From positions 1 through 63,531 of the forward strand of contig MQRK01216426.1 in assembly GCA_001938485.1 (NCBI GenBank): DNA of 63,531 nt, written 5' to 3'. This DNA is from Girardia tigrina. Taxonomy: Eukaryota. The notes beneath the pieces were generated by a model. The model worked only from the letters and a program-made list of their open reading frames with translations, was not told where the DNA came from and did not search any database. Position numbers and translations under genes: made by a program. This document shows positions 1,258-63,422 of the stretch, one piece after another. Numbering within the stretch: the first letter of the stretch is position 1; every line of letters begins with the position of its first letter.

Positions 1258-25961
<24,704 letters not shown>

Positions 25962-32275: not shown

Positions 32276-33784
32276 AATTTATATAAATAAGAAATCATTT
32301 AGTAATTTCAGATAGCAAATCAGAGAGCAGAACCAAACGTATTATCAAGAGTGACAGTACACAATTTTATGCTACTAGACGAATATTTTGCCATTATAAA
32401 TGTGTTTAAAAATCAGCATACGGTACTGTTTCCTATTATTTAATTATTTTAATATGTTAGGTATATATAAAAATAAAAGTATTAAAAATAAGTTTGTTTT
32501 AATTAACAAGATAAAATAAGAATTTATTGATCTTTTTATCAAATTAAATATAATTTATATACAAATTATTAAATTAAAAAGATAAATAAGTAGGTTGAAT
32601 TGGAAAAGTAATTTTTATGAAAAGATAATTAAAAATTTGAATAAATAAATAAAGAAATTTAAAATTAAAGGAAAACAGTATTAAAGGAACACAATTTACA
32701 ATTTATTTCAGACTTAAATTAAGACTTAATTAAGGATTTTAGACCTAATTATTTAATCTCGATTTGCTGGGAAAATAAACTCAAGTTATTTTTCCAGGTG
32801 TAAAAATCCATAATAAAAGTAGTCCTCAAGTGATTATATTGTGCAAATCAAACCCACCTGGATATTATTTCTCACGCTAGTATTTGTATAAAAGTTGAGT
32901 AAAAAAACAAGTAAGTTAGACTCCTATAATCTGGACCAAGAAGAGTAAAAGTCTAAGCAAAGAAAAAGTACGAAAGAAATATATAAATTATTTATCTTTA
33001 ATTAAATATTTGATATATATACTTTTTTTTAAAAAATTTCAGTTGGACAAAAGAATCTTCTTTTCCCATCTTACCCAAAATATAAAATAATAAATAAGCT
33101 AAGTCACTTAAATATCCTTGAATCCGTCAAAAATGACATATTATTAATTTAGATAGTAAATCTGTTTATTAATTCGCGTATTTCCCTCTGGATTTCTCAT
33201 ATGTGCAAAATTTCAGCTCAATCGGACAATATAAAGTGGGATAAATCCTTTTACAAGATTTGCATCTATCAAACTAACAAATAGTCGAAGTGAGCTAAAA
33301 CAAGCGTGGTCAATGTGATAAAAGCATTGATTCCAGTTGATTAATTTTATTAAGTATTTGAAAATAATTGTAATTAAATTTTTGAACAATTGCAAATATA
33401 CTAATTCATGCATGTGAATATATTTATACATAATCCTTAACAATAAAAATAAATCATTAAAAATTATCTAAAATTTATAGGCATTTTCCAATAATGAATG
33501 CCACCATTTCATCAATGTATCGAATCAAAATTATGGACACAAATTGCTATTGCATATACATTACTTATAATTGACGAGTGCGGTTGCAAATGAATTTTCT
33601 AGAAACGATAAAATTTCTATAAAAAATTCATTTGTTTATCTGTGTCAAATTACAAAGTCATTTAAACTACACAATTTGAATTTATTCTCAAATATTAAAT
33701 CACACTTGGTTATATTGGAATATTTATTTAAACACTTTCTGAATTTGACAATTTCACTTATCAAATAATAAAGAGAATTTTATA

Positions 33785-34549
33785 ATGTTCTTAACAATTT
33801 CATTGTTTATTTTTCATTTTGTTCAAATCGAAGCGATGTTTAATTGTTTTAAATGCGGTGGTTATGATGCTACGTTTTGTATAAATGAGCAGATCAAATC
33901 ATTTAATATTATAAATGCCAAATGCCTGATCCAAAAATCAAATAATAAGACTGGAACATGTATCATTTGTAAATTGGGTTGCTATTTTCAGGAGAACGGG
34001 ATGAATATCAACGATAAATATTACCAATTTCTCTCCAGCGAACCAACATTTGAACTAATTTTATATAATTTTAGTGTTATTCCTCACTTAATTCAAATTA
34101 AGTCAACAATTCCGGTTGATATTTCTAATATAAGATTTGTTGTTGAACTGGAAGGATTTATAAGTATAAACTGTGTGACGAAATTTGTCAATCATAACAC
34201 AATTTGGTGTGAAATTCCTCAACCCGAATCACATGAAGAAGCAAATCCGAATTTCAATGTGAGAATAAAATTTGGTGATTTGGATTGTCGAAAGAATATA
34301 TTTCTTAAGAGCATCAAATTGAACCTGAAAGTATTGGAAAGAAATGCTTTTACATACATATATCATGTGATATTATTCATGTTAACAGCGGGAATTATAG
34401 TAACAATTATATTTATAATGAAATTTCCGCAAATAAAACAACGAATTTCTGATATGAAAAGAAAAAAAGGAAGACGAAGTCAAATAAAAAAACTGACAGC
34501 GGTAAAAAGGAATGATGAGAATATTTATGATATTAATGATAATATTTAG
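33785..34549 (+). CDS. Orphan single-exon type-I membrane protein, 254 aa (signal peptide, Cys-rich ectodomain with possible IPT/TIG-like segment, one TM helix, basic tail)
   Basis: Long ATG-stop ORF in very AT-rich DNA; hydrophobic N-terminus; TM YIYHVILFMLTAGIIVTIIFIM followed by KRKKGRR. Confidence 0.75.
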   Translation: MFLTISLFIFHFVQIEAMFNCFKCGGYDATFCINEQIKSFNIINAKCLIQKSNNKTGTCIICKLGCYFQENGMNINDKYYQFLSSEPTFELILYNFSVIPHLIQIKSTIPVDISNIRFVVELEGFISINCVTKFVNHNTIWCEIPQPESHEEANPNFNVRIKFGDLDCRKNIFLKSIKLNLKVLERNAFTYIYHVILFMLTAGIIVTIIFIMKFPQIKQRISDMKRKKGRRSQIKKLTAVKRNDENIYDINDNI

Positions 34550-44333: not shown

Positions 44334-47300
44334 ATGATGGCGTTGCGAAACGAATCGCCTCCTCCCGGTGTCACAGATGACGAGTTGCGCCTGGAATTGA
44401 TCGGCGACTCGAGCTACAGCAAGCTTGGCTGCATCGAGCTCATCCAGAGCATCATGGGCCGCCTCGTTCGGTACTGCTCGAGCGAGGAGAGCGGCGAGGC
44501 CGTCCATGACGAGTTTGAGTTCGATGACGAGCTGTGCAAGTTCATGGACATGACGGTGGACGTGGACGTGCTCCACTTCGTCAGGGAGATCGCCTTCATC
44601 GAGCCGCTGTGTCACGCGATCAGCATCAATCGGTCCGATCGATTTAATGTGAGACAATCGCACCACTTTATTCCATTTACAATCAGGGTACGACTGTTAT
44701 ACTGCCCCCACATTATGTAATCTGTGAAGATTTATATATTCTTTAAGATTAATTATTTATTTAATTATCGTCAGAATATATTGTGATTAATTTCGACGGA
44801 CCAACCGTCATAATCAATTTGTGCCTGATTAATCATAATATATTCTGACGAAATTTTATTTAATAAATTTTTAATAATTAATTTAATTTATTTTAATTAA
44901 TTAAATTCATTGAATAAATAAATTTTAATTAATTATTTATTTTTTTAGTAATTTAACTTAATAATTAATTTATTCTTTAAGATTAATTATTTATTTAATT
45001 ACTTTATTTAATAAATTATTAATAATTAATTTAATTTATTTTAATTAATTAAATTCATTGAATAAATAAATTAGTGAATCAATAAATCAATTATTACATA
45101 AATGAATAAAAAGTAAATAAAGTAAAGAATAAATTATTTAATTTATTATTTATTTTATTAAATAAATTATTTAACAAATAAATTATTAAATTTGATTTGA
45201 TTGAATTTCAATTAATAATTAATTATTTCATTTTTTATTAATTAATTAACAATTTTATCCATCCATTCCACCAGTTATTCCTCTAATTCGAAACGAAATT
45301 ATATAATCTATACAGATTACATAATATATGGGCAGTATAACATTCGTTCCAAATCTCAATTTAAAGGGAAAATTTCATAATGTAGAATGAAAAAAAATCA
45401 AATTTAAAATAAGCTTCAATTTAAAATCACAAATTCTTAATGTACAATGAAAAATTCTCAATTAGAAATTAATAATTTTCAATTTAAAAGGAAAATTATC
45501 GATTCAAAATGGAAAAATATCAATTTAAAAAAATTAAAAATCTCAATTTAAAGCGAAAATTTCTTAATTTAGAATGAAAAAAAATCCAATTTTATAATAA
45601 GACTCAATTTAAAATAAAGAAAAAATCTCAATTTAAAATCAGAAAATTCTCAATATAAAATGAGTCTCAATTTGAATTTAGATTTTTATTTCTATTTGAT
45701 TTTGTTATTTTTATGAGCAATTTTCGATTAGGATTACGACTTTATTAATATGGAAAAATTCAAATTTTTACGCTATTTTTTTTTACAATTTTTACGCTAA
45801 ATGGAAATACAAAAAAAATCATTTATTGATTAAAAAAATTATAATATTTTGTATTAATTTTTCATTGCAAAAATATCAATTAAAAAAATTAAAAATCTCA
45901 ATTTAAAGCGAAAATTTCTTAATTTAGAATGAAAAAAAAAATCCAATTTTATAATAAGACTCAATTTAAAATAAAGAAAAAATCTCAATTTAAAATCAGA
46001 AAATTCTCAAATTAAAAGGAAAAAAATTCTCAATATAAAATGAGTCTCAATTTGAATTTAGATTTTTATTTCTATTTGATTTGGCTATTTTTATTAGCGA
46101 TTTTCGATTAGGATTACGACTTTATTAATTGGAAAAATTCAAATTTTTACGCTAAATGGAAATACAAAAAAATCATTTATTGATTAAAAAAATTATAATA
46201 TTTTGTATTAATTTTTCATTGCTTGTCTTGTTTTTCTATCAAAATATTTCCAATTCGTCGTCTTACGAATGATTTGAGGCCTTCCTTTTCGCCTTTTCGG
46301 TTATCGGTTCTGTGAGGAATATTTTAAATTTGGTATGTTGAAATTGGTTTGTTGAATTTTGTATGTTGAGTTTAATATTTGGAAATGTGTTTCTCCCACC
46401 CAGATGGAAAATTGATATTTTGGATGTTCACGATAAATAATTATTCGAGTATAATTTATATTTTAAGTACAGCATAAGATATTTAAAAACATTAAAAATA
46501 TTAAATCATTTCAAATTTTCATATTAAAATTTAAATAAAATAAATAGTTTTAACTAAGTTTTGAATTAATTAAATGTTCTTTCTTTACATAAAATAATTT
46601 TTAAATAAAATTAATACTAAAATTATCAAATTTGAACTGTAAAAATAAAATCTGAAAATAATGAAAAATTTTAATAACCAAAGTCATCCATTAAAAAATA
46701 TATTTATAGACTATATATTTCGACGGATCTACCGTCATCTTCAGGTCACTAATTAATAATCAATGCACCTGTATATAAATACAAAAATAATGATTGTGTA
46801 ATCGATTGCATGAAATACAATTGCATAACGGTTACTGCAATATTACTTTTAACATTGTTAAAAGCAACTAACAATGAATTAAATTTAAAAATTATATCAC
46901 GATCTCATAAAATTCAAAATATGTTCAGTAATAAATCTATTACACCTTTAACACTGTGTTCTGATATTGTTTATGAATATAAATGTAATGGGTGCGATGC
47001 CACATACATTGGAGAGACTGCCCGTCATCTCTGTAAACGAATTCAAGATCATGGTCGAAAAGAGAGTGAGAGTAATATTGCAGAACATAGGAAAAATGTA
47101 AATGTGATGTTAATTTTGATAATTTCAAAATTCTGTGTAAGCATTTTGACAGTTATTGGGAGATAGTGTCGTGTGAAGCATTGTTAATTATGTCACGTTG
47201 CCCTAAAATCAATGTTCAATCGGCAGTCTCAACCAGCTAATTGAGAATTTTTGATTAGCATGATTTCATGCAATCGATTACATAATCATCATTTTTGTAT

Positions 47301-49970
47301 TTATATACAGGTGAATTGATTATTAATTAGTGACCTGAAGATGACGGTTGATCCGTCGAAATATATTGTCTATAAATATATTTTTTAATGGATGACTTTG
47401 GTAATTAAAAGAATTTTTTCATCCGGACTTCGTTTTATCAATGAAAAATTTTTTCGAATAATTGTTTATTAACAAACATTAACAAAAAATTATCAATTTA
47501 GAACGATGTCGAATGACGAGAGTTTTGCTGAGAGTTGTCCAAAAGACAATTCTGATTGTATTGAAAATAAAAGTTCGAAAACCATGTTGGTGTTCTTAAT
47601 AGGTTCAAAAACAAAATTCAATTTCTGTTTCAAATACAACACGCACCAGACACGCTGACACTGTTTAAGCTGTGATATCTTTGATATTTTCAACAAATTG
47701 ATCTTTAGCCGCTTGAGTCATCGAATTTACATTCACGTCCATCTTCAAAATTATATTGTATTACAACTGAGACCGGATGGACTAATTTTTTCATCTTCCT
47801 CATTTTCTTGGTTCATTCAGCATTTGGTAACAATAAGTACATGTCGTCGTCACCTTGTGATATAGGGTTTTTCGATTTATTTTCCAATCTTGCAATCAAT
47901 TTTCCAATGATATAATTTTAATCAATAGAAATTAATTATTCATAAATTATTAAAAATTTTGAAAAAACCGATAAAACGGGTGGTGATCGAAGATCTAAAC
48001 TTGATGATAATCAAAAGCATCAGTTTAGAGCCTGGGTGGATGAAAATCGCCTTCTTACCCTAAAAGAATTGAGTGGTAAGGTTATTGATCTTTTTCGATC
48101 GAGTGTGTCTCAAAGCACCATTGACCGCTGTCTCAGGCGATTTCATTACACCTTAAAACAGATTACAATAACTCCTGCCCCACGAAACCATGGTAGTACC
48201 ATTGAAAAAAGATATCAGTATGCGCATAAGTGCAGGGAATATAAGGTGACTCAGTGTTGACAAATTAATTTTCTTAGATGAAGTTGGCAGTGCAGTGTCC
48301 CTTGCAGGCACTTCTGCATATGTAGATGTTGTGATGGGTATTTTAGAAAAATGCTTCGATATGCCATTAAAGCGGAAAAGAGAAACAATTCTTGAATAAA
48401 ATTTGTTTCTTTAATACATATATTATATATACTTTGTGTTGTTATTTCTGATGTTATTAATTTTTTTAATTTTATTGATGTTAGAGATGATATATTGATA
48501 TAATGGAAATTAATATTAATTTTGTAGTTACTTCTATTATTAAAAATATTATTATTATTTTTTCATGTATAAAAAATCCAAAAAAACATTTTTAAACAAT
48601 TTTGATTTTATGTAATTTTATTTATCTTATTAATTTTTATTGATTAAAATTATATCATTGTAAAAATGATTGCAAGAAAATTAAAAAAAGACGGTTACGC
48701 AATCTTCGTTGGAAAATAAATCGAAAAACCCTATATTTTTTATCTCTCTGCATCCATATTCGATTTTCATCATTATAACCAACTCCTTCAAATGATTTCC
48801 ATTGGTTTACCGTTCGTTTCTTAATTTCTTTCGTATTATTATTGTTATCCATTTATAGATAAATTTTAATCAATTTTTAATATTGGAAATAAATTTAAAA
48901 AATTAATTAATAAAAACAAAAAATCACCGATTTAAAATATATTATCTATAAATTTTTATTATTTTAAAAAATCTGAAAGAAAGTTAAATTATATTTAGCG
49001 TAAGGAATTGTTTAAAAATGTGCGTAAAATTGTAAAATTAGCGTATGTATTTTATTACACCCTTATTAATATTATAATTAAATAATAGACTTTTATATTG
49101 TCCCCAAATTGTGTAATCATTTTGTAACAATTTTAATTCAATCTATAACAATCTTCGAAAAAAATAACTCTAAGCGTGGTTTACTCAAAGGATGAAATAT
49201 TTTTTAATGATGTTAATGTGACTTGGGCATGGAAAAGCATGATTTTCTATCACTATTCATTTGGCTTAGCAAAGTTGATAAACATTCTTTATTAGGTTGA
49301 ACAAGCAAGAATCGTGATCTTGAAGAAGAAGCGGTTGAATTGAAATTGAAACTTAAAAATTGAAGTATAAAAGTCACTCCAATTCAATTTTAAGAGCCTA
49401 TGATAGAAATTTTATCCTTTGAGTAAACCATGCTTAGAGTCATTATTTTCCTAAGATTGTTATAGATTGAATTAAAATTGAAACAAATGATTACATAATT
49501 TCTGGGGCAATATAAAATCGTACCTTTCAAAACAATATTAAAGGATTACAATAAACAACAAATTTAAAAATTAAATATACGTAAAATAATAATTGTGATA
49601 AATATTTTTATTAAAATTTTAAAATTAGATATTATTTTGATTTGATTGCAATTTTAAATAAATGACAAATTATTGGAAAATAGAGATCGGCGGATTCATT
49701 ATTAACTTAGAAAATGTTTGGGACTTTGTTTGAAAATTGTTTATAATAAATGTATAAATTGAGTAAAAAATGATTTCTGAAATTTATGTTACACACACCT
49801 CACAATTTGTATAATTTTAATGATTTTAATTTTTTCAATTTTATTGTTTTTGTCTGTATTGGTGAATTCTATTTTGTATTCTTTTTATTAGCTTACTTTC
49901 TATATATATATATATATATANNNNNNNNNNNNNNNNNNNNNNNNNNNNNNNNNNNNNNNNNNNNNNNNNN

Positions 49971-50022
<52 letters not shown>

Positions 50023-53000
50023 CACTGTGCAGAAAAATCTGTATAAAATGGATAAAAATAAGACGACGCGTTTCGAGATAATAATCATCTCATCATCAGG
50101 TCACAAAATACACTTAGATAGTACACTATATGGAAACTTGCCAAAAATAAATAAATATTATCCAATAAATTATTGGATGAAAATAATTTTATTTCACTTT
50201 TCCTTAAAATTATGCAAAATGCATTACATGCAATTATTTCCATTCTCGCAAACCAACCATTGGCAGCTATCAATTGCCATTTAAGAAAACGATATGTTTT
50301 CTCTATTGTTCGTACTTTACAAGGTATCTGAGACATGATAAAGATGACAACTAACAGCACACGAAAAGCTAATCTTTGAGATGAAGCTTCTCACACTCAA
50401 TGCAATGAACTCAATTTTAGCCTTCCCATCAAACCCAAAACAATCTGAAATCTCATCGATGCAATTTGACTGAAATGTCTAATCAAATGGAATTGATTGC
50501 ATTTAGTGCATTTTGCTTTATTTTAAGGAAAAGTGAAATAAAATTATTTTTATCCAATAATTTATTGGATAAATTTTATTTATTTTTGAAAAGTTTCCAT
50601 ATAGTATCTTAGAGCATCTTGTGACCTGATGATGAGATTAATATTATCTTGAAACGCGTCGTCTTATTTTTATCCCTTATATTTTGAAGGCCTTTTATTC
50701 AATCAATTTTCTCCAATCTTTCCACATTTACTCACTTTCGATGACGATAAATGATTACAGTAGATACCGCTTAAAGAGAATATTTTTGGGACTTGAAAAA
50801 ATGTTCTCTATAACCGATATTTCTCTTTAACAGATACTTTTTTACAAGGATAATTTTTAAAAAAATATCAAAAAAAAACTGTACTAATCAACACATTTAT
50901 TTTTTAAAAAAAAGTTCCAAAAGTTAAAAAAAAACCAAAAAGTTCTCTAACCGATTTTATTCTCTTTAAGCAAGTTCTCTATAAGCGAAATCTACTGTAT
51001 GTGAAAATTTCATCAAACTAGTAAATCAAACAATTGTTTTTGCAAAAAAAACGTTTGACGATTATCCGCAAATGTTTAAACTGTATTAAATAGAAATGTT
51101 ATTATTAACTTTTTAATTGTAAAATGTAGTTACTAAAAATTTTTGGTATGAAATTTTCCATTTTACAAAAGATTTAAATAGTTACTTATAACGTAATTAA
51201 TTTTTTAAAAGAACGTAATAGTAATTTTCAATCTTCTATAAAAGATATAAAAAAATTCTGTTGGCCGAGTGGAATTCTGCCCGTATAAAGAATGGATATG
51301 AAAAATTTTTTTTGATTTACTAGCTTCGTCCTTAGACAGTTTTGGCCAATGATTTCCACATGTTAATTTCCCTGTCACTAATTTTAAAGTTTCAGTAATT
51401 TTTATTTATTTTACTTGTTGATTAATAGAATACTTACTACCGTGTTTCTCGAAGTATAAGACACTGTCTTATATTCATTTTGATGGAAAATTACTAGTAG
51501 GTCTTATACTAACATATTTAAGGGATGTCTTTTATTGTTGGGTATTTGAATTAACTCTGTTTTATCCTTGTTTATATTAAATTTCTAATCTGACTCCAAA
51601 AAGACCAAAATGTTTCTTCTAACATTAATATATGAAGAATGAACACAAATCCTTTTAATATACTTTATTTGTAAATGACAACTTGAGCATAAAATTAAAT
51701 CGAAACTTTAACAACAAATCAATATTTTGAAGCACACTCAACCAGCACAAACCAATATCAATTTAGAACGAGCAATATCTGAAATTTATGATTAAATTTT
51801 TCTGCTGTACAGGATACTAAATTTGTTAAGTAAACTAAAATTAAATAAAGAAAGATTACCATAAATCATAATCAAGTTTAAAAATTTAATAGGATCTGTA
51901 AGTATAATTTATCCGTAATTTTTGTTGTGAATATGACTGAAATAATTATTGTTTATATACTAGTTTTTCTAACCTTAAAAATTGAAAGGCTAAAACAAAT
52001 CTCAAAATATTTATAATTATTCTAAAAATTTTATTAAAATAATGTAAATCGAAAATTATTGATTTTTTAACAGAGAATTATTTTTAATTTTTTTACAAAA
52101 CTTTTTGATTAAAAATTTGAATTTATATTTTGAAACCCCAACAATATTAATATTCCCAAAAAAAGTCTATATTTTGGACTTGGGCGTTATTCCGGGGAAT
52201 GTCTTGTATTTGTAGAAACACGGTATAACGTTTATAACATTTTTTTCTAAAGATTTTTACACTTATATATTACAATTATACCATAATTAAAACCTATATT
52301 TTATCAACTGTACTGATCTAATTTGAGTATAATTAATTGGTATCGTATTGTAAACAATTGAAATTCCCAATGATTTCAGGAGCTGTTTATCGGGATATTA
52401 AGTAATTTTGCATCTGACGACGTATTGTGTCACAAAATCACTGGGAATTTGGAAATTGTGTTAGTGAGTTATTTGAAATATCTACTATCTATTGATTGTT
52501 TCTTTGATCTTCAGAGATTTATTTATATCATTTTGGTCATCTGATTATCCTTCGTTTTTATTAGAATGCTCCAGGTAACGAGTATCGGTTATAAGAATCG
52601 AATTATTGTTGTTTAGGTTAATAAAAATTGTCTTAAAGAATCCCAGTTGCTTCCCTGTCTGGTTGCAAGTAATTAAGTCCAATGAAAACTTTCTAAATCA
52701 CATTATTTTCATTTTGAATTCCTCGACAAATGGTTAAGAGTTTTTTTATTTGAATGGAAACAGAACTCAACGATTGGTATTCTTATTAGGTGAACTGTTA
52801 ATATCGACTCTACAAGTTGTCGGACAGTTGATGAAACTCGATGATGAGCTGTGCGAGAAATGGATCAGTCATGAGTTACTCTCGGCTGCGCTGGTCGCGA
52901 GAAAAGAGACCGAGTAAATTATTTGAATTCGATTAGATGTCATTGGTGTAGTGGTTGACACATAAGATCATTGGACACAAATAGGATTTAATTTACAAAA

Positions 53001-56000
53001 TTATAACATTTGTAAAGATTTTAAATAAGTTTAACTGAAAACATTTAACTTTCTCGTTCTTGATAAAACGAAGTCCGGATGAAAATCTTCTTTTAATAAC
53101 CAAAGTCATCCATTAAAAAATATATTTATAGACTATATATTTCGACGGATCAACCGTCATCTTCAGGTCACTAATTAATAATCAATTCACCTGTATATAA
53201 ATACAAAAATGACGATTATGTAATCGATTGCATGAAATCATGCTAATCAAAAATTCTCAATTAGCTGGTTGAGACTGCCGATTGAACATTGATTTTAGGG
53301 AAACGTGACATAATTAACAATGCTTCACACGACACTCTCTCCCAATAACTGTCAAAATGCTTACACAGAATTTTGAAATTATCAAAATTAACATCAGATT
53401 TATATTTTTTCCTGTGTTCTGCAATATTACTCTCACTCTCTTTTCGACGATGTTCTTGAATTCGTTTACAGAGATGACGGACAGTCTCTCCAATGTATGT
53501 GGCATCGCACCCATTACATTTATATTCATAAACAATATCAGAACACAGTGTTAAAGGTGTAATAGATTATTACTGAACATATTTTGAATTTTATGAGATC
53601 GTGATATAATTTTTAAATTTAATTCATTGTTAGTTGCTTTTAACAATGCATTTTTAAAGTTTTTAAATCCTTCAGAATAAGGTACAATTAAACAATATTT
53701 AGGCATATTATTCATATCTAATGATCCTTCGATTTCTTTCTTAGATCCATCAGGAGAAGCCAAACTCTGATTTTTCGAAAAAATTTTCAAAAGTATTTTA
53801 TCTACTGTTTCCTTTATTAATTTTTCTAGAAAGGATTTAGAATAACCATTCTGATTTAACAAAGAACTTAGTTTATTAACACTTTCTACAGATTTAACAA
53901 AAGTGGAAGACAAAGACCAGGAGCGATAAATTAAACCTTTAATCATGTTTCTTTTATACTCAAGTTCACAAAAACTATCTGGTGAAGTATATAAACCTGT
54001 ATCAGTTTGCTTCCTATAAATTCGTTCTTGAAAATTTCAGTAGAGAAATCTAATTTTTTTATTTCTAGGTTTATCATTTTAAATTGGACATTTTTATTTT
54101 AGATTGATTTTTTTAATTTTAAACTGAATTTTCATGTGTAACTTGTGAGGATGTGGCGCACTCTTAAAATTGGTGAATGTTTGAGATGGGCGGATGTCTG
54201 GGGTCGAAAGTTCTTGGGGGAAATTGTAATGGTATCACGACAGAACACCGCGAATGAAAACGTCGAATTTAATAATTAAATTAATATTAAAATTATTTAA
54301 TTTGGTAAAATTTTATTTAATTAATATTGATATTATTAAAATGAATATTATTATTTGAAAATTTTTCAAAAAGGGCTTAAATTAACCTCTAAAAATGAGT
54401 ACCCTGTTTTATGGTTATAAGGTACCACTGCTTATTTAGGTGCCACCTTATTAAATTTTTATCCGAATGAACACGAAGACGTTGAAGATGTAGTTATTGA
54501 GGAAAGCGATGAAAAATCTGAAGAATCTAAAGATGAGGTAGATGAAGATCAAGGTATTCGTGAGCAGCTCATTGATATATTGTTGGATGAAAATAATTTT
54601 GGTAGCGAAGATGAAGATTATGATGATTCAAAAATATAATTGAAAAAGATGGAATTTTTTTTAAATTTTTGTTTCGTTTTACTAAGGTTCCACTGTTTAC
54701 TAAGGTGCTTTCGGGGAAAAATTTTGTCTTTTAAAATCTACTAAGGTGCCACCATATAACCATAAAACAGGGCATGTTTTTTGATACCGTCCCATGTTTC
54801 CCTAGAGACTGACCTGTGCAGCAGAATCATTGCACTGGATTTGTTGCAACTCGTTCTGGGCCCATTTAAAATTCTTTAATTGTTTGTTCATTTTTAAATC
54901 GTTTTTAATCCTTAACAATATTCAAATCAAAAGACAAATAGAAAAATCGTATAAATTCGTCTCGAAAAATTCGTTAATACAGTTTTGTTTCAAAAATTCG
55001 AAATCGTAAAAAAAGTGATCAAAAGTCGTTCAATCAAAATATTAAATAGCTCAAATCGTCAAAATATTCGTTACAGTAAATAGCTCGAAATCGACAATCA
55101 TTAATTATGGTTCTTTGAAAAAAATTTGGATACTGAAATGTGTGAGAAATATTTGCCATGCATATTGAAGGAAAGTCAGCGAGGGAAATTTCAAAATTTT
55201 TAGATATAAGTAAATTGATGGTTTTCAAAAGCATTAAAAAAGCTAAATATCGTCAGAATTACTCATCGTCAGAGAAATCTGGACGACCAAAGTTGATAAC
55301 AGGTTTTGAAGAAGCTAATTCCTCAATATCGTCGTGCTGCTGTTCACATAATAAACAATAAATGGAGTATACAAACAGTCATTTGAACTTTTCCGTTCAT
55401 TTGTCTACGTCGAATACGTGTATATTTCATCCATAATTAAAGGATATGACGAAACACGATAGAAAGATCTTGCGGGCTAGTTGCTTGTTGACGACTGAGA
55501 TTTCAAATTCTGATGCCTTGTGTGATTCTATTTTTAGTGTAGTGTTCTTGGTTCTCGCTGTCTGTGATATTCCCTGGGAGTGGAGGAACTTCAGTAATTG
55601 TACTTTCATACTTGTAATCAGAGTTAAAAACATTATCATAAGAGTGATTATTTACAAAAGTTACATAATCACACCCGTAAATTAAATGATACAAGGGAAA
55701 TGTTTGGTGTGATGGAATTTAATATCAATAACACGATTATTAAACTATCAAAATCGGAAATTAATGTTTTAAAATTTGGAAAAATTGGAGGGTATGTGAT
55801 AATGATTTTTAGGGTTTGATTAGTAACTTAGATCACAATTATGAAACGACATTTACTGAAGTGCTGTTAATAAAGTTTTATAAACCGAGCTTAAACATGC
55901 AAAGTGATTTATCCTATCATATTAGAGTATTTTGAAGAAAGATATTGTGATGTCTTGCCCATCTTACTAGATTTACATAAAATTGATCACCGAAATAATT

Positions 56001-57200
56001 GCTCCTTGACGAATTGCTCGAGGTTGAATTTTAATAGAGAAAAAACTGCAAGTATACTATCGATGCATAAAATATAGTACATTTTTTACAATACAATCTC
56101 TTATGGTTAGGTTTAGCCCTAATCTTTAACTCCGTAACCCTTACCCTAACTCTTACCTTAACGCTAATCCGTAAGCCTAACCAAAATCCTAAACTCTAAC
56201 CTAGTAACCTAAATCTAACCCTTAACCTAAGCGCTAACATGAACCCTAATACAAATTCAGTTTTTCATGGAGCAATTTTCGTACGGGGAGAAATTTTATT
56301 AAGGAGCAATAATGAGAAGAGTAGTTTTCATCGGGAGGAATTTTTGGGGATCAATTGTCTGGATATCATCTTTTTTTTACTTAAATACGGGACTGAAGAT
56401 GCCACAAAAGTGGCGAAATATGTTTTCCAATAAAAATTTAAATTTGAAATTGTGTTATTTTAATTTACTTATCAATTTACCATTTGATTTAATTATTAAT
56501 GCCAAAATAAAAAGTTAAACAGACATGATTGAATCGATTTTTGGTTTCTTCTGTTTTAAATTCAAAAATCTTTTTAAAATCGATTTTGGATTTATCATTT
56601 ATCAAAAAAAGTAATGAGTAAAATTAAACTAAATCACGAAATATTTTACTTAATAATGAGACGAAAGTAATTTTTTGGAACATTTTGTTAAGAAGTGATT
56701 CTTTGTTTCTAAAATCGCGGCTGTACTGAATATTTGAATACATATATTTCAGATGGTTCCTCAATAATGATATTGATTATTTCCATTACTTGATCCATTT
56801 GTTTTCTACAAATGAGAATGGGATTGTTACTCTAAGTTCGTTTTTTTTAATGTCGATTATATAACCGGAGATGGCCGATTTAGTTAGTAATTTCCATGCG
56901 GTTTACGCGAGTTTCAACGAGTACCTCAATAAGATTTGTGATGAAGAGCCACACCTGATAATCATCGGACAATGCCACAATAGTCTCAGGTTGATTCTAC
57001 CCACCATCGATGTGGTGGTGGCCAATATGGCCACCGAGGAGGCGCTGAACCTACTCCAGTCTGAGCCAACCGTACTCGACAATCTCGTACGGCTTGTTTA
57101 CTCATGCAGCCTTCAATCAGAGAAGACAGCCGCCCAGGAGGTCTATCTCGAGATCAGCTCGTTTTTCAATACGATTATTGGTATCACTTACTCGAATTTG
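44334..57200 (+). CDS. SAAL1: SAAL1 orthologue; exons 44334-44648, 52380-52459, 52515-52574, 52617-52732, 52790-52913, 56753-~56825, 56871-57200; 3' exon(s) not resolved
   Basis: RNESPPP..IGDSSYSK..DDELCKFMDMTVDVDV, ELFIGILSNFA, SDYPSFLLECSRL, FILNSSTN, LMKLDDELCEKW parallel human SAAL1 motifs as recalled (RNPSPPP, IGSTVYSK, EICVGILGNMA, SDPPTLLETSRL, FIMSSSTN, LFDLDEKLMLEW); GT-AG phases consistent, exon 6 donor uncertain. Confidence 0.85.
44691..45346. mobile_element. AT-rich MITE
   Basis: ~50-bp imperfect TIRs CGA.TGTTATACTGCCC..A.ATTATGTAATCTGT. Confidence 0.7.
44785..44817 (-). ncRNA. Degenerate minimal hammerhead motif inside a 24-bp-arm hairpin (44768-44851)
   Basis: Minus strand TTGATTA-T-GACGG-TTGGT-CCGTC-GAAA-TTAA-TC; core CTGANGA has two substitutions. 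Confidence 0.55.
45513..46222. repeat. Tandem duplication of a ~355-bp unit built from CTCAATTTAAAA-like subrepeats
   Basis: 45513-45868 resembles 45869-46222; both end TTTGTATTAATTTTTCATTGC. Confidence 0.85.
46709..46749 (-). ncRNA. Minimal type-I hammerhead ribozyme
   Basis: GAC-CTGAAGA-T-GACGG-TAGAT-CCGTC-GAAA-TATA-TA-GTC. Confidence 0.85.
47330..47370 (+). ncRNA. Minimal type-I hammerhead ribozyme
   Basis: GAC-CTGAAGA-T-GACGG-TTGAT-CCGTC-GAAA-TATA-TT-GTC. Confidence 0.85.
47940..48330 (+). mobile_element. IS630/Tc1-like transposase fragment
   Basis: GGDRRSKL..WVDENRLLTLKEL..VSQSTIDRCL..YTLK..RN..IFLDEVG. Confidence 0.75.
49091..49517. mobile_element. Long-TIR MITE / foldback
   Basis: ~105-bp imperfect inverted repeats (TTTTAATTCAATCTATAACAATCTT..CTCTAAGC.TGGTTTACTCAAAGGAT). 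Confidence 0.8.
50062..50104 (-). ncRNA. Minimal type-I hammerhead ribozyme
   Basis: GAC-CTGATGA-T-GAGAT-GATTATT-ATCTC-GAAA-CGCG-TC-GTC. Confidence 0.88.
50621..50663 (+). ncRNA. Minimal type-I hammerhead ribozyme
   Basis: GAC-CTGATGA-T-GAGAT-TAATATT-ATCTT-GAAA-CGCG-TC-GTC. Confidence 0.85.
50758..50997. mobile_element. pogo/Tc1-type MITE inserted at TA within the repeat shared with 445-910
   Basis: TIRs CAGTAGAT..CGCTTA.AGAGAA; removing it restores ATGATTATGT as at ~519-528. Confidence 0.85.
51440..52223. mobile_element. pogo-type MITE
   Basis: TA|CCGTGTTTCT..A..TA.AAGACA ... TGTCTTGTATTTGTAGAAACACGG|TA. Confidence 0.75.
53061..54021 (-). mobile_element. 5'-truncated Penelope-like element (same family as 46671-47440): RT thumb + GIY-YIG + 3' UTR
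   Basis: IYRKQTDTGLY..MIKGLIYRSWSLSS..L.QNGYS; near-identical GIY-YIG and UTR; TSD TCGTTCT(TGA). Confidence 0.93.
53131..53171 (-). ncRNA. Minimal type-I hammerhead ribozyme
   Basis: GAC-CTGAAGA-T-GACGG-TTGAT-CCGTC-GAAA-TATA-TA-GTC. Confidence 0.88.
54402..54772 (+). mobile_element. Internal-deletion derivative of the pogo at 35758-37482
   Basis: Same TIRs CCCTGTTTTATGGTTATA and near-identical acidic C-terminal coding segment. Confidence 0.9.
55120..55420 (+). mobile_element. Tc1 transposase HTH fragment
   Basis: HIEGKSAREISKFLDISK..V..SIKK..KSGRPKLIT. Confidence 0.65.
55995..56365. mobile_element. MITE with degenerate (CCCTAA)n core
   Basis: Inverted ATTGCTCC/GGAGCAAT subterminal repeats flank CCTAAC-like repeats at 56115-56250. 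Confidence 0.6.
56389..56428 (+). ncRNA. Minimal type-I hammerhead ribozyme
   Basis: GGGA-CTGAAGA-T-GCCAC-AAAA-GTGGC-GAAA-TATG-TT-TTCC. Confidence 0.75.
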
Positions 57201-57775
57201 GTGAGTTTTTTGTGCTCACGATGAATTCATTATTGATTTTATTTACTTTATTAATCATTATGCTTACAAGAAATATCTGATTGTTAAAAGAAAAGAACAA
57301 CTAATTTATCTGTTTTCTAATAACAAAAATATTCCTTTAAATAGCAACGATCATTGTCAATAATCTTCTGCCAGTCTTCGGATCTGTCCCATGTACAGGT
57401 TTTAAGGTTTTCGGATTAAGACTAGATAAGTTTTTCAATTCAATCAAAATTGATAAATCTGAGGCCCATTAGGAATTGCTGCATTGACCGGAATCTGGTA
57501 TAGTTGGGTACAGGTCTTTTTGGCGCCGTTTTGGCACTCTTTATATATTTTATTATTAAATAATTTTTAAATAGATTTTTGTTTATGGTATGGGAGCTAT
57601 TCTTTCAATGGAATAATGTTTTCCAGGTGTTATAATTCAGGTTTGCTTTTTTCATTTAGCTCATAATGTGAAGAAACAAGTAAAACGGATTGGATTGCAG
57701 AGTGAATGGAATTCAAACCCTGAATTTTCATTGAAAGTTAAAATGGTGGTTGCATTATGTTTTGTACATATAGAT

Positions 57776-58910
57776 CAGTGCTTCCCAAACTTTTTGAATC
57801 GCGGACCCCTTGCATAATAAAGTTTTCCGTGAGGAAAACTTTAAGCTTATATCCATATCGTGTTACTTGTCAACATGAGTTGAAAGACACAGACTTTGAA
57901 AAACGACTCCAGTTTTGTCATTGGTTCAAGGAAAATCTGAATGAGGATGACATGCTCGACAAGACTTTTTTTCCTATGAAGCGTGGTTTCATTTGTCTGG
58001 ATATGTGAGTAGCCAAAATTCTCGAGTTTGGTCCAGTGAAAATCCGCATGAATTTGTTGAGAAGCCTCTGCATTCCTTGAAAGTNNNNNNNNNNNNNNNN
58101 NNNNNNNNNNNNNNNNNNNNNNNNNNNNNNNNNNNNNNNNNNNNNNNNNNNNNNNNNNNNNNNNNNNNNNNNNNNNNNNNNNNNNNNNNNNNNNNNNNNN
58201 NNNNNNNNNNNNNNNNNNNNNNNNNNNNNNNNNNNNNNNNNNNNNNNNNNNNNNNNNNNNNNNNNNNNNNNNNNNNNNNNNNNNNNNNNNNNNNNNNNNN
58301 NNNNNNNNNNNNNNNNNNNNNNNNNNNNNNNNNNNNNNNNNNNNNNNNNNNNNNNNNNNNNNNNNNNNNNNNNNNNNNNNNNNNNNNNNNNNNNNNNNNN
58401 NNNNNNNNNNNNNNNNNNNNNNNNNNNNNNNNNNNNNNNNNNNNNNNNNNNNNNNNNNNNNNNNNNNNNNNNNNNNNNNNNNNNNNNNNNNNNNNNNNNN
58501 NNNNNNCTTTTCTTGTTATTTTTAATAAATTAAGAGACGGTCATTGTTCTTCACATAAAATTGACTTTTCAAAATATTTTGTTATTGATTTTTAGAACAC
58601 AGGATATCGTTCTTGTTTTGAAATTTCAGGTGCACAGTTACTTTTTGAACGCACTGTACCTTGGTTTTAGAATTATAAATATTTTCTTATATTGGCGAAT
58701 CAAAAGGAAAACATCTTTTAATTATTAAAACAGAGAGTAGGATTTTAGCAAATAATATATTCAGCATAATAATAAATTCATATTACATTGTCGTTTTAAT
58801 AATATGGATTTTATTAATTTTTTATAAAATTTATTAGTTCATTTCGCAGACCCTTGAATATCATGTCACGAACCCCTAGGGGTCCGCGGACCACAGTTTG
58901 AGAAACACTG
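57776..58910. mobile_element. hAT (Charlie-like) element nested in the MULE
   Basis: TIRs CAGTG.TTC.CAAAC; 8-bp TSD ATATAGAT/TTATAGAT. Confidence 0.85.
57826..58657 (+). mobile_element. Tc1/mariner-superfamily transposase fragment nested in the hAT
   Basis: LYPYRV..HELK..D.EKRLQFC.W, EAWFHLSGYVSSQNSRVWSSENP; right end TTTGAACGCACTG|TA. Confidence 0.8.
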
Positions 58911-59932
58911 TTATAGATCATTTAGATAACTACATTAGTGCTCTGTCTGAAGATTTACCACAAGAACTAAGTTCCTTGTTTTATTGGTTTGAGGATAATT
59001 ATGTTGGATGACCAATGAGAAGAAGAAATGTCATCTCGGATGTGGAACCAATACGAAAGAACAATCGTAGAAATTGATATGACAAATAATTATGTAGAAG
59101 CAGCACACAGAAAAATATATGCAGAAATTGGTGTTTGTCATCCAATTTTATGGAAATTTATTGACTGTTTAAGAAAAATTCAAAGGAGTGAAAAATGACT
59201 GTATATATATTCTTTAAATTCTTTCAAAAAAATTAAAAAAGCGCCAAAATATACGGTCATTATAAATTTGGTTACCATAAACAAAAATATATTTCAAAAT
59301 TATTAAAAAAATATATGGGTAAAAGGTTCAAATAACTCAATTATGAAAATTATATCATAATTTTAAAAATGCCATTAAATCATTTTGAAAAATAATGAAA
59401 CACTATTTTTACTAAACTTTATTTCAAAACAAAGCCATGATCATCCAATTTTGTTTGTTTGGAAGCATTTTCTTTTTTCAATATGATTAAAATTTTACTA
59501 TTTTCTTCAAATAACTGAGAGTTTAAATAACTCAAAGAGTACTGTATATATAGAATGCCAAAAAACGGTGCCAAAAAGTCCTGCTCCGGGTATATTTAGA
59601 GGTCCGTGACAGAGAAATTTAATACAACATAATCTAATCGTGTGTACCAGGTTTGCCCATTTTTGCAATACTTAAGATCGAATTTAAACCCATCTATCGC
59701 GAGATAACCCCATGTACCGAGAATTTGGATATTTAGTATAACTTTAGTTCTGTCACTTTATTTATAAAATCGAGATCGCTTGGGTGGAGCAACTATGAAG
59801 ATTTACCACATATCATCTCGACACTTTTTATTGACTGACTTTGTGCCATTTCCCTTTTGTGTCACAATTTTCCATGCTGTGACAATTTTGATTTTATCTA
59901 CGATTTGTTGCTTATTATTACAAAATGATTAA

Positions 59933-60172
59933 CCCTCCGACCGCGTATATTTTCAAATTTGGTTTAGTGCATTCACATTTTATCAACTGGCACGTTCACA
60001 CCGCAACTCAGGATCAGCTTTGTTTACTACAGAAAGACAGCTTGAACGGGCAAATAGCTGGATAGTAACGTGAGAAAACATAAATAAATGCGAGCACGTC
60101 CAAATCGCGAGATGCGTATAATTATACCAATAGATGCTGCATACGTAAATCGCGGGATACCCGGTCAGAGGG
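59933..60172. mobile_element. piggyBac-like MITE
   Basis: TTAA|CCCTC.GACCG ... CGGTCAGAGGG|TTAA. Confidence 0.8.
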
Positions 60173-60405
60173 TTAATATACAAGCCACAAAACTATTTGT
60201 CTGTTTTCTATTAGGTGAGTCATAAATTTCTAATCAAAAGGTTATTTCGTTTTTTTTTCGAATTGTAAGTAGAATCACACATAACAACAAGTAATTAATT
60301 TATTTTTAAAATAATACAAAACAATTTGAATATTAAAATAACGTCCCAATATTTCTATTGATATTTCAGGAGAATTTGTAAATGATATTTACGATCCTTT
60401 ATGTG

Positions 60406-60457
<52 letters not shown>

Positions 60458-60499
60458 AGTCTTGTAAACGCAAGTTTAATATTTTGAAATATAATTTGA

Positions 60500-61050
60500 T
60501 TAAAGCTTTTTTATATAATTATTGGACATGTTTCGATGTTTATATACATCATCATCAGTAATTTTAATACAATTTTAATAGATACATTAACTTTAAAAGG
60601 TATATTAGGGATTGAATATTATTTATTAAAGTATTATTGAAAAAAAATTTAATTTTGAACTTTGGATGTGACAGAGACTACTTTAGCACTACTTATTGTT
60701 CTACAAATACTCTTCAAAAATGCTCTAAATCCTTCAGAATATGGAATTTTAATGATTTGTTTGTATTCTTCAGTATTTTCTTCTTTTAATTGTTTTTTAA
60801 CTCGTGCATCTGTACATAATTTGTCTAATGTTACCCTAATGTTGTGTTCTATTTGTTTATTTGTATACATATTGACCCTCAAGCGCCTTCTAAGAATATT
60901 TAAACCCTGATTTGCAATTTCAAAACTGGACGACAAATTCCGAACTCTGTGAACAAGCCCTTTGATCATACCCTCTCTGTATTTTTCCTCACAAAAACTC
61001 TGTGGTGTTGTGTAAAGACCTGTATCTGTTGCCTTTCTGAATAATTCAAT
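60500..61050 (-). mobile_element. Truncated Penelope-like element of a second family; GIY-YIG core deleted
   Basis: LFRKATDTGLYTTPQSFCEEKYREGMIKGLVHRVRNLSS..IPYSEGF. Confidence 0.85.
60521..60562 (-). ncRNA. Minimal type-I hammerhead ribozyme
   Basis: CTGATGA-T-GATGT-ATATAA-ACATC-GAAA-CATG-TC; stem I imperfect. Confidence 0.78.
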
Positions 61051-62208: not shown

Positions 62209-63422
62209 TTAGGTCTATTAATAATTAATGTAGTTCATTTGATCTTCGTTTAAATGCATCAATATAACCTACAAACCTGCGGTGAATACAAAAAGTGTAA
62301 AGCGTAATTAACAAGGTTTGTTGCAAATATTTTGTGCTTTAACTGTTGAATTTTTTTCGAAGTAGGTGGTAAAGGATGGTAGATGAAAAGCATATAAGGT
62401 ATTGCATGTTTTACGAGTTCCAGTTGGGAAGAAAAGCAAATGAGGTTGCTAAAAATATATACAGTCAGAAAATATCAGCGTTGGTTTAAGAAATTTCGCA
62501 ATGGAAATTTTTCGTTGACTGAGGAGAATGGTCGAGGCCGTGTGTCTGATTTTGACCAGGAATCCCTTGATGCTCTTGTGGTTACAAATCCTGAAATTAC
62601 ACAACAAGAGCTTGCGGCAGCTTTAAACTGTTCGCAAAAAACTATTTGCAATCAATTGCTGTCACTTGGTAAGGTTCACAAGTTTGGAGAGTGGGTTCCG
62701 CATGAGTTAACCGAAAACAACCGCAAGCAAAAAGTTACAATCTGCAGTTCGCTACTCTCTCGCCAAGACCGATTGCCATTTTTAGAAGAAATTGTTACCG
62801 GAGATGAAATATAGGTTAATCGGAAGAGACAGCCACAATGGTTGGACAAAAGCGAAGCGGTGAAACATACGCCAACGCCTGACTTGCATGCGAAAAAGGT
62901 GACGTTGTGTGTTTGCTGGAATTTTAAAGGTATTCTTCACTTTGAACTCTTACCAAACAACGAAACCATTACAAGTGGAGTGTATAGTGCACAATTGGAA
63001 ATGTTAGACCAAGCTTTGAGAAGAAAGAATCCGCGCTGATTAATCGGATGTGCGTAATTCTTCATCATGATAACGCACGACCGCATACCGCAAGAATCAC
63101 TGCGGATAAAATACGCCATTTGGATGGGAAGTTCTACTACAACCTGCACACTCTCCAGATATTGCACCATCCGATTATCATTTGTTGCGTTCATCGCAAC
63201 ATTTTCTTAGTGGAAAAAAATTCAAAAAATGAAGAGTGCTTCAAAAACGCCTTGACCGAATTTTTTGAATCTAAATCACAAGAATTTTATAACAGAGGTA
63301 TTAAGATGTTATCTGAACGTTGGGCACGAGTAGTTGAAGACAACGGCGACTATATTATTGATTAAATTCTTTTGTTTGTTTAAAAAAATTGTTTCAAATA
63401 TTTTTTTTATTACTAGACCTAA
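62209..63422 (+). mobile_element. Mariner (cecropia/Hsmar1-like), disrupted transposase 62376-63365
   Basis: TTAGGTCTA.TAATAA TIRs, TA TSD; KHIRYCMFYEFQLGRKA, WVPHEL, VTGDE, HHDNARPH, SPDIAPSDYHL. Confidence 0.92.

Follow-up and report, generated by a model that had tools for sequence, protein, structure and literature searches.

The SAAL1-like host gene and its transcripts

The analysed window, a 63,531-nt stretch of Girardia tigrina DNA, contains a SAAL1-like gene and, in and near its introns, eight hammerhead ribozyme motifs (Table 1). The host gene is identified as SAAL1-like from sequence similarity: a phmmer search with exon 1 alone gave seven proteins at E ≤ 0.001, with weak scores (E 1e-6 to 5e-4), and four of the five clusters looked up among these matches carry the SAAL1 name. 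In the Atlas, SAAL1_C was found on 21% of the rank-6 cluster, with catenin-beta-like clusters ranked above it. Pfam gave no domain match on two exons, and word-indexed protein searches returned zero or one relative, without a gene name.

The seven exons comprise 365 codons with no stop, and the transcript extends past exon 7. RNA reads were placed on exons 2-7 only, so that direct cover did not extend to the 60558 motif or to intron 1; exon 2 is linked to exon 1 by the loose end of one transcript contig, which agrees with 44611-44640 at 29 of 30 positions. A 3,839-nt intron is skipped by GT..AG joints in three of four RNA runs, and spliced mRNA was seen in three studies; run X7 had no exon cover and is uninformative. 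Sequence of one Penelope-like element (PLE) family, referred to below as family A, is abundant in the same RNA runs. At position 56419, inside the hammerhead of remnant C (Table 1), the transcript contigs read C, in support of a private palindrome change in the window copy.

Hammerhead motifs and the insertions that carry them

A descriptor for minimal hammerhead cores (CTGANGA-N-stem II-GAA-A....T-H) was run across the whole window and matched seven intact cores, compared with none in each of 20 local shuffles. The eighth motif, 44785-44817(-), was matched only at a relaxed setting, at which the shuffles gave 0-2 matches; judged by its sequence it is nevertheless a genuine remnant, because its stem II, palindrome and 3' flank agree with those of a family that is abundant in the genome. 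The eight motifs of the original prediction were thus recovered as seven intact and one decayed, with the stem II pairings and palindromes originally listed, and the one palindrome mismatch reported, in a motif then placed from 56389, is the ATATGT of 56393-56424 (family ACATGT). An Rfam scan of the window gave no hammerhead family match at E ≤ 5.

The core CUGANGA and GAAA with U16.1 and H17 is present in seven of the eight motifs, and all eight have a stem II of 5-7 pairs after one unpaired base, opening with G-C except at 50626, where the first pair is G-U. The helix III palindrome is perfect in all but the copy at 56393, which carries a single change. Stem I has 3-4 pairs in six motifs and is broken at 60558 and 44817; it is present in 12 of 12 family representatives. 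Hammerhead helix III was absent from all eight predicted monomer folds.

Table 1. Positions of exons, hammerhead motifs and PLE insertions in the window.
Feature	Position	Strand	Remarks
SAAL1-like exon 1, coding part	44334..44648	+	phmmer matches; transcript contig end
SAAL1-like exons 2-5	52380-52459, 52515-52574, 52617-52732, 52790-52913	+	GT..AG joints in three runs; open frame
SAAL1-like exons 6-7	56753-56835, 56884-57200	+	transcript contigs; open frame
Decayed hammerhead, family E	44785-44817	-	ATTAAT; two core changes, without stem I
Intact hammerhead	46712-46744	-	descriptor; ATATAT, antisense to SAAL1
Intact hammerhead	47335-47367	+	descriptor; SAAL1 sense
Intact hammerhead	50065-50099	-	descriptor; ACGCGT
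Intact hammerhead	50626-50660	+	descriptor; ACGCGT, SAAL1 sense; G-U at first stem II pair
Intact hammerhead	53134-53166	-	descriptor; ATATAT, antisense to SAAL1
Intact hammerhead	56393-56424	+	descriptor; SAAL1 sense; palindrome ATATGT
Intact hammerhead	60525-60558	-	descriptor; ACATGT, stem I broken
Insertion A1, inverted 5' arm	46669..46816	-	includes hammerhead 46712-46744 (ATATAT)
Insertion A1, body	46853..47441	+	5'-truncated PLE, GIY-YIG remnant, 3' repeat with hammerhead 47335-47367
Insertion B	50020..50682	.	one hammerhead in each inverted arm: 50065-50099(-), 50626-50660(+); adjoins (TA)n run
Insertion A2	53060..54036	-	5'-truncated PLE: RT C-terminal part, GIY-YIG, hammerhead 53134-53166 (ATATAT)
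Remnant C	56374..56507	+	sense hammerhead 56393-56424; ATATGT a private change from family ACATGT
Insertion D	60450..61050	-	PLE RT C-terminal remnant, hammerhead 60525-60558; ends in (TA)n

The motifs form the 3' ends of six truncated PLE insertions, two of which are inverted pairs that contribute two motifs each. The reported cluster of eight therefore stands as a count of motifs but corresponds to six insertions, since 46744/47335 and 50099/50626 are in each case the inverted arms of a single element. The Penelope-type assignment and the presence of several sequence families (A, B, C, D and E) were both borne out. In agreement with PLE anatomy, GIY-YIG lies just 5' of the hammerhead, with RVT_1 found in sister copies; for families A, D and E, RT followed by C-terminal GIY-YIG with the hammerhead directly downstream was seen. 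The GIY-YIG of A2 passes the Pfam cut-off (PF01541, E=1.5e-5) and the remnant in A1 falls under it (E=0.0019); A2 shares 34% identity with an RVT_1-bearing ORF of family D. Families B (2,675 motifs in the genome) and C had no intact GIY-YIG frame in the fetched loci and were assigned to PLE by motif and inverted-arm anatomy alone. A 5'-truncated copy with an adjacent inverted arm was observed for A1 and B, and also for 8 of the 38 other motifs whose flanks were long enough. Insertion D has lost its endonuclease part by internal deletion. A Naiad reading of this element was rejected, because other family-D copies run from RT into a C-terminal GIY-YIG.

Relation to known elements

The motifs belong to an established class, the minimal hammerheads of PLEs (Cervera and de la Peña 2014, PMC4209133), and share with it the type-I core, the extra base before stem II, a short stem I (in six of the eight motifs) and the palindromic helix III, as well as the occurrence of many families per genome, mostly as single truncated copies, and opposite-strand pairs 100-700 bp apart. 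They differ in number (~34,000 copies here versus roughly 2,000-9,000 there, with differing descriptors), in a stem I of 2-5 pairs and in having U at the cleavage position in many families. A very short stem III is shared with the dimer-cleaving PLE hammerheads of Lünse, Weinberg and Breaker (via PMC6765202); dimer dependence would be common to both, here as a prediction from sequence.

The order RT then GIY-YIG is that of the canonical C-terminal-endonuclease PLEs (Penelope/Poseidon, Neptune, Nematis and Hydra; Craig et al. 2021, PMC8557442), which, like the copies here, also show 5' truncation, an adjacent inverted copy and a 3' hammerhead; some of their families target (TA)n, as insertions B and D, next to (TA)n runs, may do. 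In contrast, Naiad and Chlamys have an N-terminal endonuclease and are without canonical hammerheads. Type-I hammerheads related to PLE ends, intronic ones included, are likewise found in non-LTR retrozymes (bioRxiv 10.64898/2026.07.22.740005); those are non-coding head-to-tail tandem units, whereas the motifs in the window sit at the ends of coding elements, next to coding remnants, and occur dispersed or in inverted orientation. According to PMC8557442, it is unclear what part hammerheads play in the transposition of PLEs. The present genome is one further case of the known PLE hammerhead pattern, and its number of motifs is unusually high.

Palindromes, stem I and pairing between families

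Published work and the anatomy of the elements suggest that the motif of an active element would cleave in the form of a double hammerhead, in which a pair of copies is joined via the 6-nt palindrome and each copy closes the stem I of the other. The original prediction had proposed that the palindromes act as family-specific pairing codes. One palindrome per family was rejected: five palindromes account for nearly all motifs in the genome, and 12 families (a count that omits upstream cluster F7, a chimera) use these five, three of them each occurring in three or four families, which leaves 24 of the 132 ordered pairs of families with the same palindrome. The family alignments in the supplements of PMC4209133 may already show palindromes common to several families.

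A weaker code would survive once stem I, also intermolecular in the dimer, is added, with 123 of the 132 ordered cross-family pairs predicted to be incompatible. Families A and B have the same stem I and different palindromes, families C, D and F the same palindrome and different stem I, and double changes that preserve a palindrome exceed expectation (ATCGAT found 50 times, versus at most ~6 expected from 377 single changes). These observations would fit a two-part address selected to prevent PLE families that share a genome from cleaving one another's RNA. We nevertheless consider such selection quite unlikely, as same-palindrome families showed no avoidance in stem I: 9 family pairs closed at least two stem I pairs, where shuffles averaged 5.1, and 3 closed at least three, where shuffles averaged 1.8, in a permutation test on 12 hand-picked representatives of related, non-independent families. 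Moreover, of the sixteen palindromes that are possible just five are common, compensatory drift inside the single families would look the same, and old copies and duplicate contigs could inflate the excess of double changes. As a set of a dozen families from one genome whose combinations of palindrome and stem I are known, they provide a matrix for testing discrimination between kin and non-kin; were the two-part address true, the genome would hold some twelve trans-acting hammerheads, for the most part orthogonal, as a natural library.

The sense copies and the SAAL1 pre-mRNA

Three copies with intact cores (47335, 50626 and 56393) lie within introns on the SAAL1 sense strand, as originally described, and had been suggested to cut the pre-mRNA. 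Cutting is judged unlikely, because these copies are incompatible as partners for one another, masking is predicted for two of them, the palindrome of the third is altered, and the introns are spliced out in transcript contigs. In cross pairs between sense copies, 2/6 to 5/6 of the palindrome pairs form and no combination has a full palindrome together with stem I, so no cutting pair is predicted at the locus. The copies at 47335 and 50626 would be held in long hairpins by the inverted arm that is transcribed before them in the same insertion (predicted probability of pairing to the distant partner 0.93 and 0.92, respectively), and the third carries the private palindrome change. Copy 56393 is itself predicted to be unmasked (0.17) and retains a 4-pair stem I, an observation that runs against complete inertness. 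Folding results are predictions, and transcript contigs cannot reveal cleavage ends or levels.

The abundance of family-A sequence in the RNA runs means that partners in trans could exist, and both 47335 and 50626 keep the palindrome and stem I of their own family. It is nonetheless highly improbable that the three intact cores, aided by same-family transcripts, tune SAAL1 output, considering the predicted masking by antisense arms, the altered palindrome of the third copy and the spliced mRNA in three studies; in addition, the copies are young, decaying and polymorphic, and even dimers show low in vitro activity in PMC4209133. That palindrome and stem I restrict dimer cleavage to kin, with the inverted 5' arms as antisense locks preserving intronic sense ribozymes, appears unlikely as well, and the two inverted-arm insertions offer a direct test of why such ribozymes are tolerated. 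The literature search found nothing relevant on a family code or pre-mRNA cutting, most subscription papers and all supplements being outside its reach. Very probably, six truncated PLE insertions in or near SAAL1 introns carry these minimal type-I hammerheads at their 3' ends, and at this locus the motifs are likely inert passengers.

Genome abundance and local density

The descriptor gave 33,758 matches genome-wide versus 115 in a reversed control. Background was 8 motifs in 278,729 unselected bases and, over ten long comparison contigs totalling 716,134 bases, 21 motifs, equal to 19-20 insertions, with one inverted pair left uncollapsed. Against this background the proposed local enrichment was confirmed as an about tenfold excess: 5 intact insertions in 13.4 kb versus 0.41 expected (P=7e-5, with the span chosen post hoc), a density that itself speaks against mere passengers, and none of the ten contigs exceeded 2 insertions per 14 kb. 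The first 44 kb of the window contain no intact motif by descriptor search, as noted originally by eye, an absence to be expected with P(0)=0.27 (1.3 insertions expected). Repeats cover 50% of the SAAL1 introns versus 18% of these 44 kb.

Of the 40 candidates that were scored out of 3,315, insertion A1 matches A2 best (741 bits versus 723 for the next), and in a comparison with 14 other copies the two have 9 minority states in common. Together with the tenfold excess, this could indicate a true PLE insertion hotspot or a site of local hopping, beyond the upper tail of ordinary clustering. We regard this as rather doubtful, since a uniform model alone gives ~6 such 14-kb tiles in the whole genome and ~780 stretches of the size of the window with at least 5 insertions, and DNA transposons also crowd into the same introns. 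The tree does not resolve A1 and A2 as sister copies despite the top BLAST match; they may represent one local re-copying event. For passenger insertions, the crowding would likely stem from repeat-tolerant introns, doubling by inverted arms and (TA)n targeting, possibly with this one re-copying in addition.

Hammerhead motifs and the insertions that carry them

In total, a structural descriptor identified exactly seven intact hammerhead motifs in the window, all confined to 46.7-60.6 kb, and none in each of 20 local shuffles; a loose core pattern gave 10 matches vs. a shuffle mean of 4.0. The descriptor confirmed the stems and palindromes (the 6-nt helix III) read in the original prediction. 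Seven of the eight motifs claimed there have an intact core; the eighth (44785-44817), which matches an abundant family of the genome, is decayed, with two core changes, and was matched only at a relaxed setting giving 0-2 shuffle matches. An Rfam search of the window gave no hammerhead match.

The motifs form the ends of six truncated Penelope-like (PLE) insertions, A1, A2, B, C, D and E, the letters also naming their families. Their layout is that of the Penelope-like elements in PMC8557442. C and E are short remnants, and families B and C are assigned to PLEs via motif and layout only, no intact domain having been found for either. A first look gave 24,100 candidates for insertion D in the genome; its sister copies contain RVT_1 and then continue into GIY-YIG, which is lost from the window copy.

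Coordinates of PLE insertions in the window
Insertion	Position	Strand	Features
A1, inverted arm	46669-46816		148 nt
A1, body	46853-47441		GIY-YIG remnant
B	about 50020-50682		Inverted layout as in A1; adjoins (TA)n run
A2	53060-54036	minus	RT frame end, GIY-YIG domain above Pfam cut-off, hammerhead motif
D	60450-61050	minus	RT remnant

The A1 body and 53060-53648 of A2, which lie 6 kb apart and mutually inverted, are identical at 578 of 591 bases. A1 was the best match to A2 among 40 scored of 3,315 candidates, and nine minority states are common to both; the tree does not settle their relation. A1 and A2 may be non-independent insertions, local re-insertion and gene conversion being possible origins of the pair. 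Both the A1 left arm and A2 also have A at the site of cleavage, where this base is rare.

Abundance and local clustering

Core matches numbered 33,758 in the 1.428-Gb assembly (about 24 per Mb) vs. 115 for a reversed control. Minimal hammerheads of several families, numbering in the thousands per genome, are already known from PMC4209133, which also describes the palindromic helix III with a dimer model (restated in PMC6765202) and opposite-strand motif pairs 100-700 bp apart.

Unselected stretches contained eight motifs in 278,729 bases, and ten long contigs (658,653 non-N bases) contained 21 motifs in about 20 insertions, eight of these contigs having been chosen via a family-D match and two motifs linked to that choice having been removed. 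Five intact insertions were found in the whole window vs. 1.9 expected (P=0.04), and the same number in the 13.4-kb cluster vs. 0.41 expected (P=7e-5; span picked post hoc). The comparison contigs contained a maximum of two insertions per 14 kb. Together, these figures bear out the local enrichment proposed earlier as a real excess. That the initial 44 kb lack intact motifs is within expectation (P=0.27), and a uniform model still expects about six tiles as dense as this cluster genome-wide. Repeats cover 50% of these introns vs. 18% upstream; remnants resembling Tc1/mariner and other DNA transposons are present in the same introns (47946-48330, 57742-59190 and 62398-63365).

Palindromes, stem I and pairing between families

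Genome counts for a single pattern form were 11,615 (ATATAT), 11,302 (ACATGT), 5,867 (ATTAAT) and 2,675 (ACGCGT), and 86 of the first 100 core matches listed bear one of these four palindromes of the window. The ACYRGT class numbered 992 (ACTAGT in 98 of the first 100), the ATSSAT class 83, and the purine-second class, mostly without stem II, 443 vs. 135 for its control. Clustering of upstream sequence (77 of 159 motifs) showed ATATAT or ATTAAT to be common to families merely 70-77% alike. Twelve representatives, one per family, give 132 ordered pairs, 24 of which have the same palindrome; there is thus not one palindrome per family, and the suggested family-specific code is not supported. Double changes to ATCGAT numbered 50, and a by-eye tally puts about 42 of them with a stem II belonging to a family; the 377 single changes would predict no more than about 6, although old copies may inflate the number of doubles. 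The palindrome looks maintained, in agreement with the published dimer model and adding nothing new. Small subfamilies with a switched palindrome (ATCGAT, ATGCAT) and an otherwise unchanged family backbone occur genome-wide, as does U at the cleavage position in many abundant families. In hammerheads, U is generally the weakest choice at this position.

Following the dimer model in PMC4209133, stem I would also be intermolecular in the double hammerhead. Same-palindrome pairs of the 12 representatives would form at least two stem I pairs in nine cases and at least three in three, vs. 5.1 and 1.8 with stems shuffled among families; this test therefore gave no sign of selected avoidance of cross-pairing. 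A two-part pairing address, combining palindrome and stem I with antisense masking, seems unlikely.

The host gene and the sense copies

A search with exon 1 identified seven proteins at E<=0.001, and four of the five clusters looked up were named saal1. Five GT..AG introns, including 52914-56752, home of the sense motif 56393, were joined in transcript contigs from three of four runs (three studies), which are labelled only as "probable RNA". The loose end of one contig at exon 2 matches the exon 1 end in 29 of 30 letters, and seven exons give 365 codons without a stop. The transcript extends beyond 57200 in two runs; the following exon was not located, so motif 60558, the hammerhead of D at 60525-60558(-), lies in a later intron or past the gene end, and is antisense in either case.

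Three copies (47335, 50626 and 56393) are indeed sense to SAAL1 with intact cores, but their proposed cutting of the pre-mRNA is disfavored by predicted incompatibility among the copies, predicted masking of two and a changed palindrome in the third. In predicted folds, helix III formed in no monomer, and no pair of the three combined a full palindrome with stem I. The predicted probability of pairing to the own upstream antisense arm, the inverted 5' arm of A1 or B transcribed before its sense hammerhead, was 0.93 for 47335 and 0.92 for 50626; this arrangement was found for eight of 38 other motifs. 56393 is predicted to be unmasked (0.17), but its palindrome change is private and the contigs show the family base. 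The runs that yielded the contigs are also rich in family-A sequence, and trans partners are therefore possible. An intronic cut need not prevent splicing, so spliced mRNA leaves some cleavage possible; transcript contigs reveal splice joints, not RNA ends or levels. According to PMC4209133, cleavage in vitro is poor even for dimers. A literature search covering few subscription papers turned up nothing on a pairing code between families, or on such hammerheads cutting pre-mRNA. The window motifs are real, of a kind already known, and probably inert at this locus.

Other features of the window

By eye, a leucine-rich-repeat gene with scattered exons and an EF-hand-like end spans 1177-26000, a broken LTR-retrotransposon-like remnant with gag-, protease-, RT- and integrase-like frames occupies 4052-7830 (minus strand), and a 480-bp tandem duplication at 19541-20850 has dihydrofolate reductase-like frames. 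A single 266-codon frame at 33749-34549 ends in a transmembrane-like segment. Degenerate telomere-like repeats of the CCCTAA type (56100-56250) lie within another repeat that splits remnant C.
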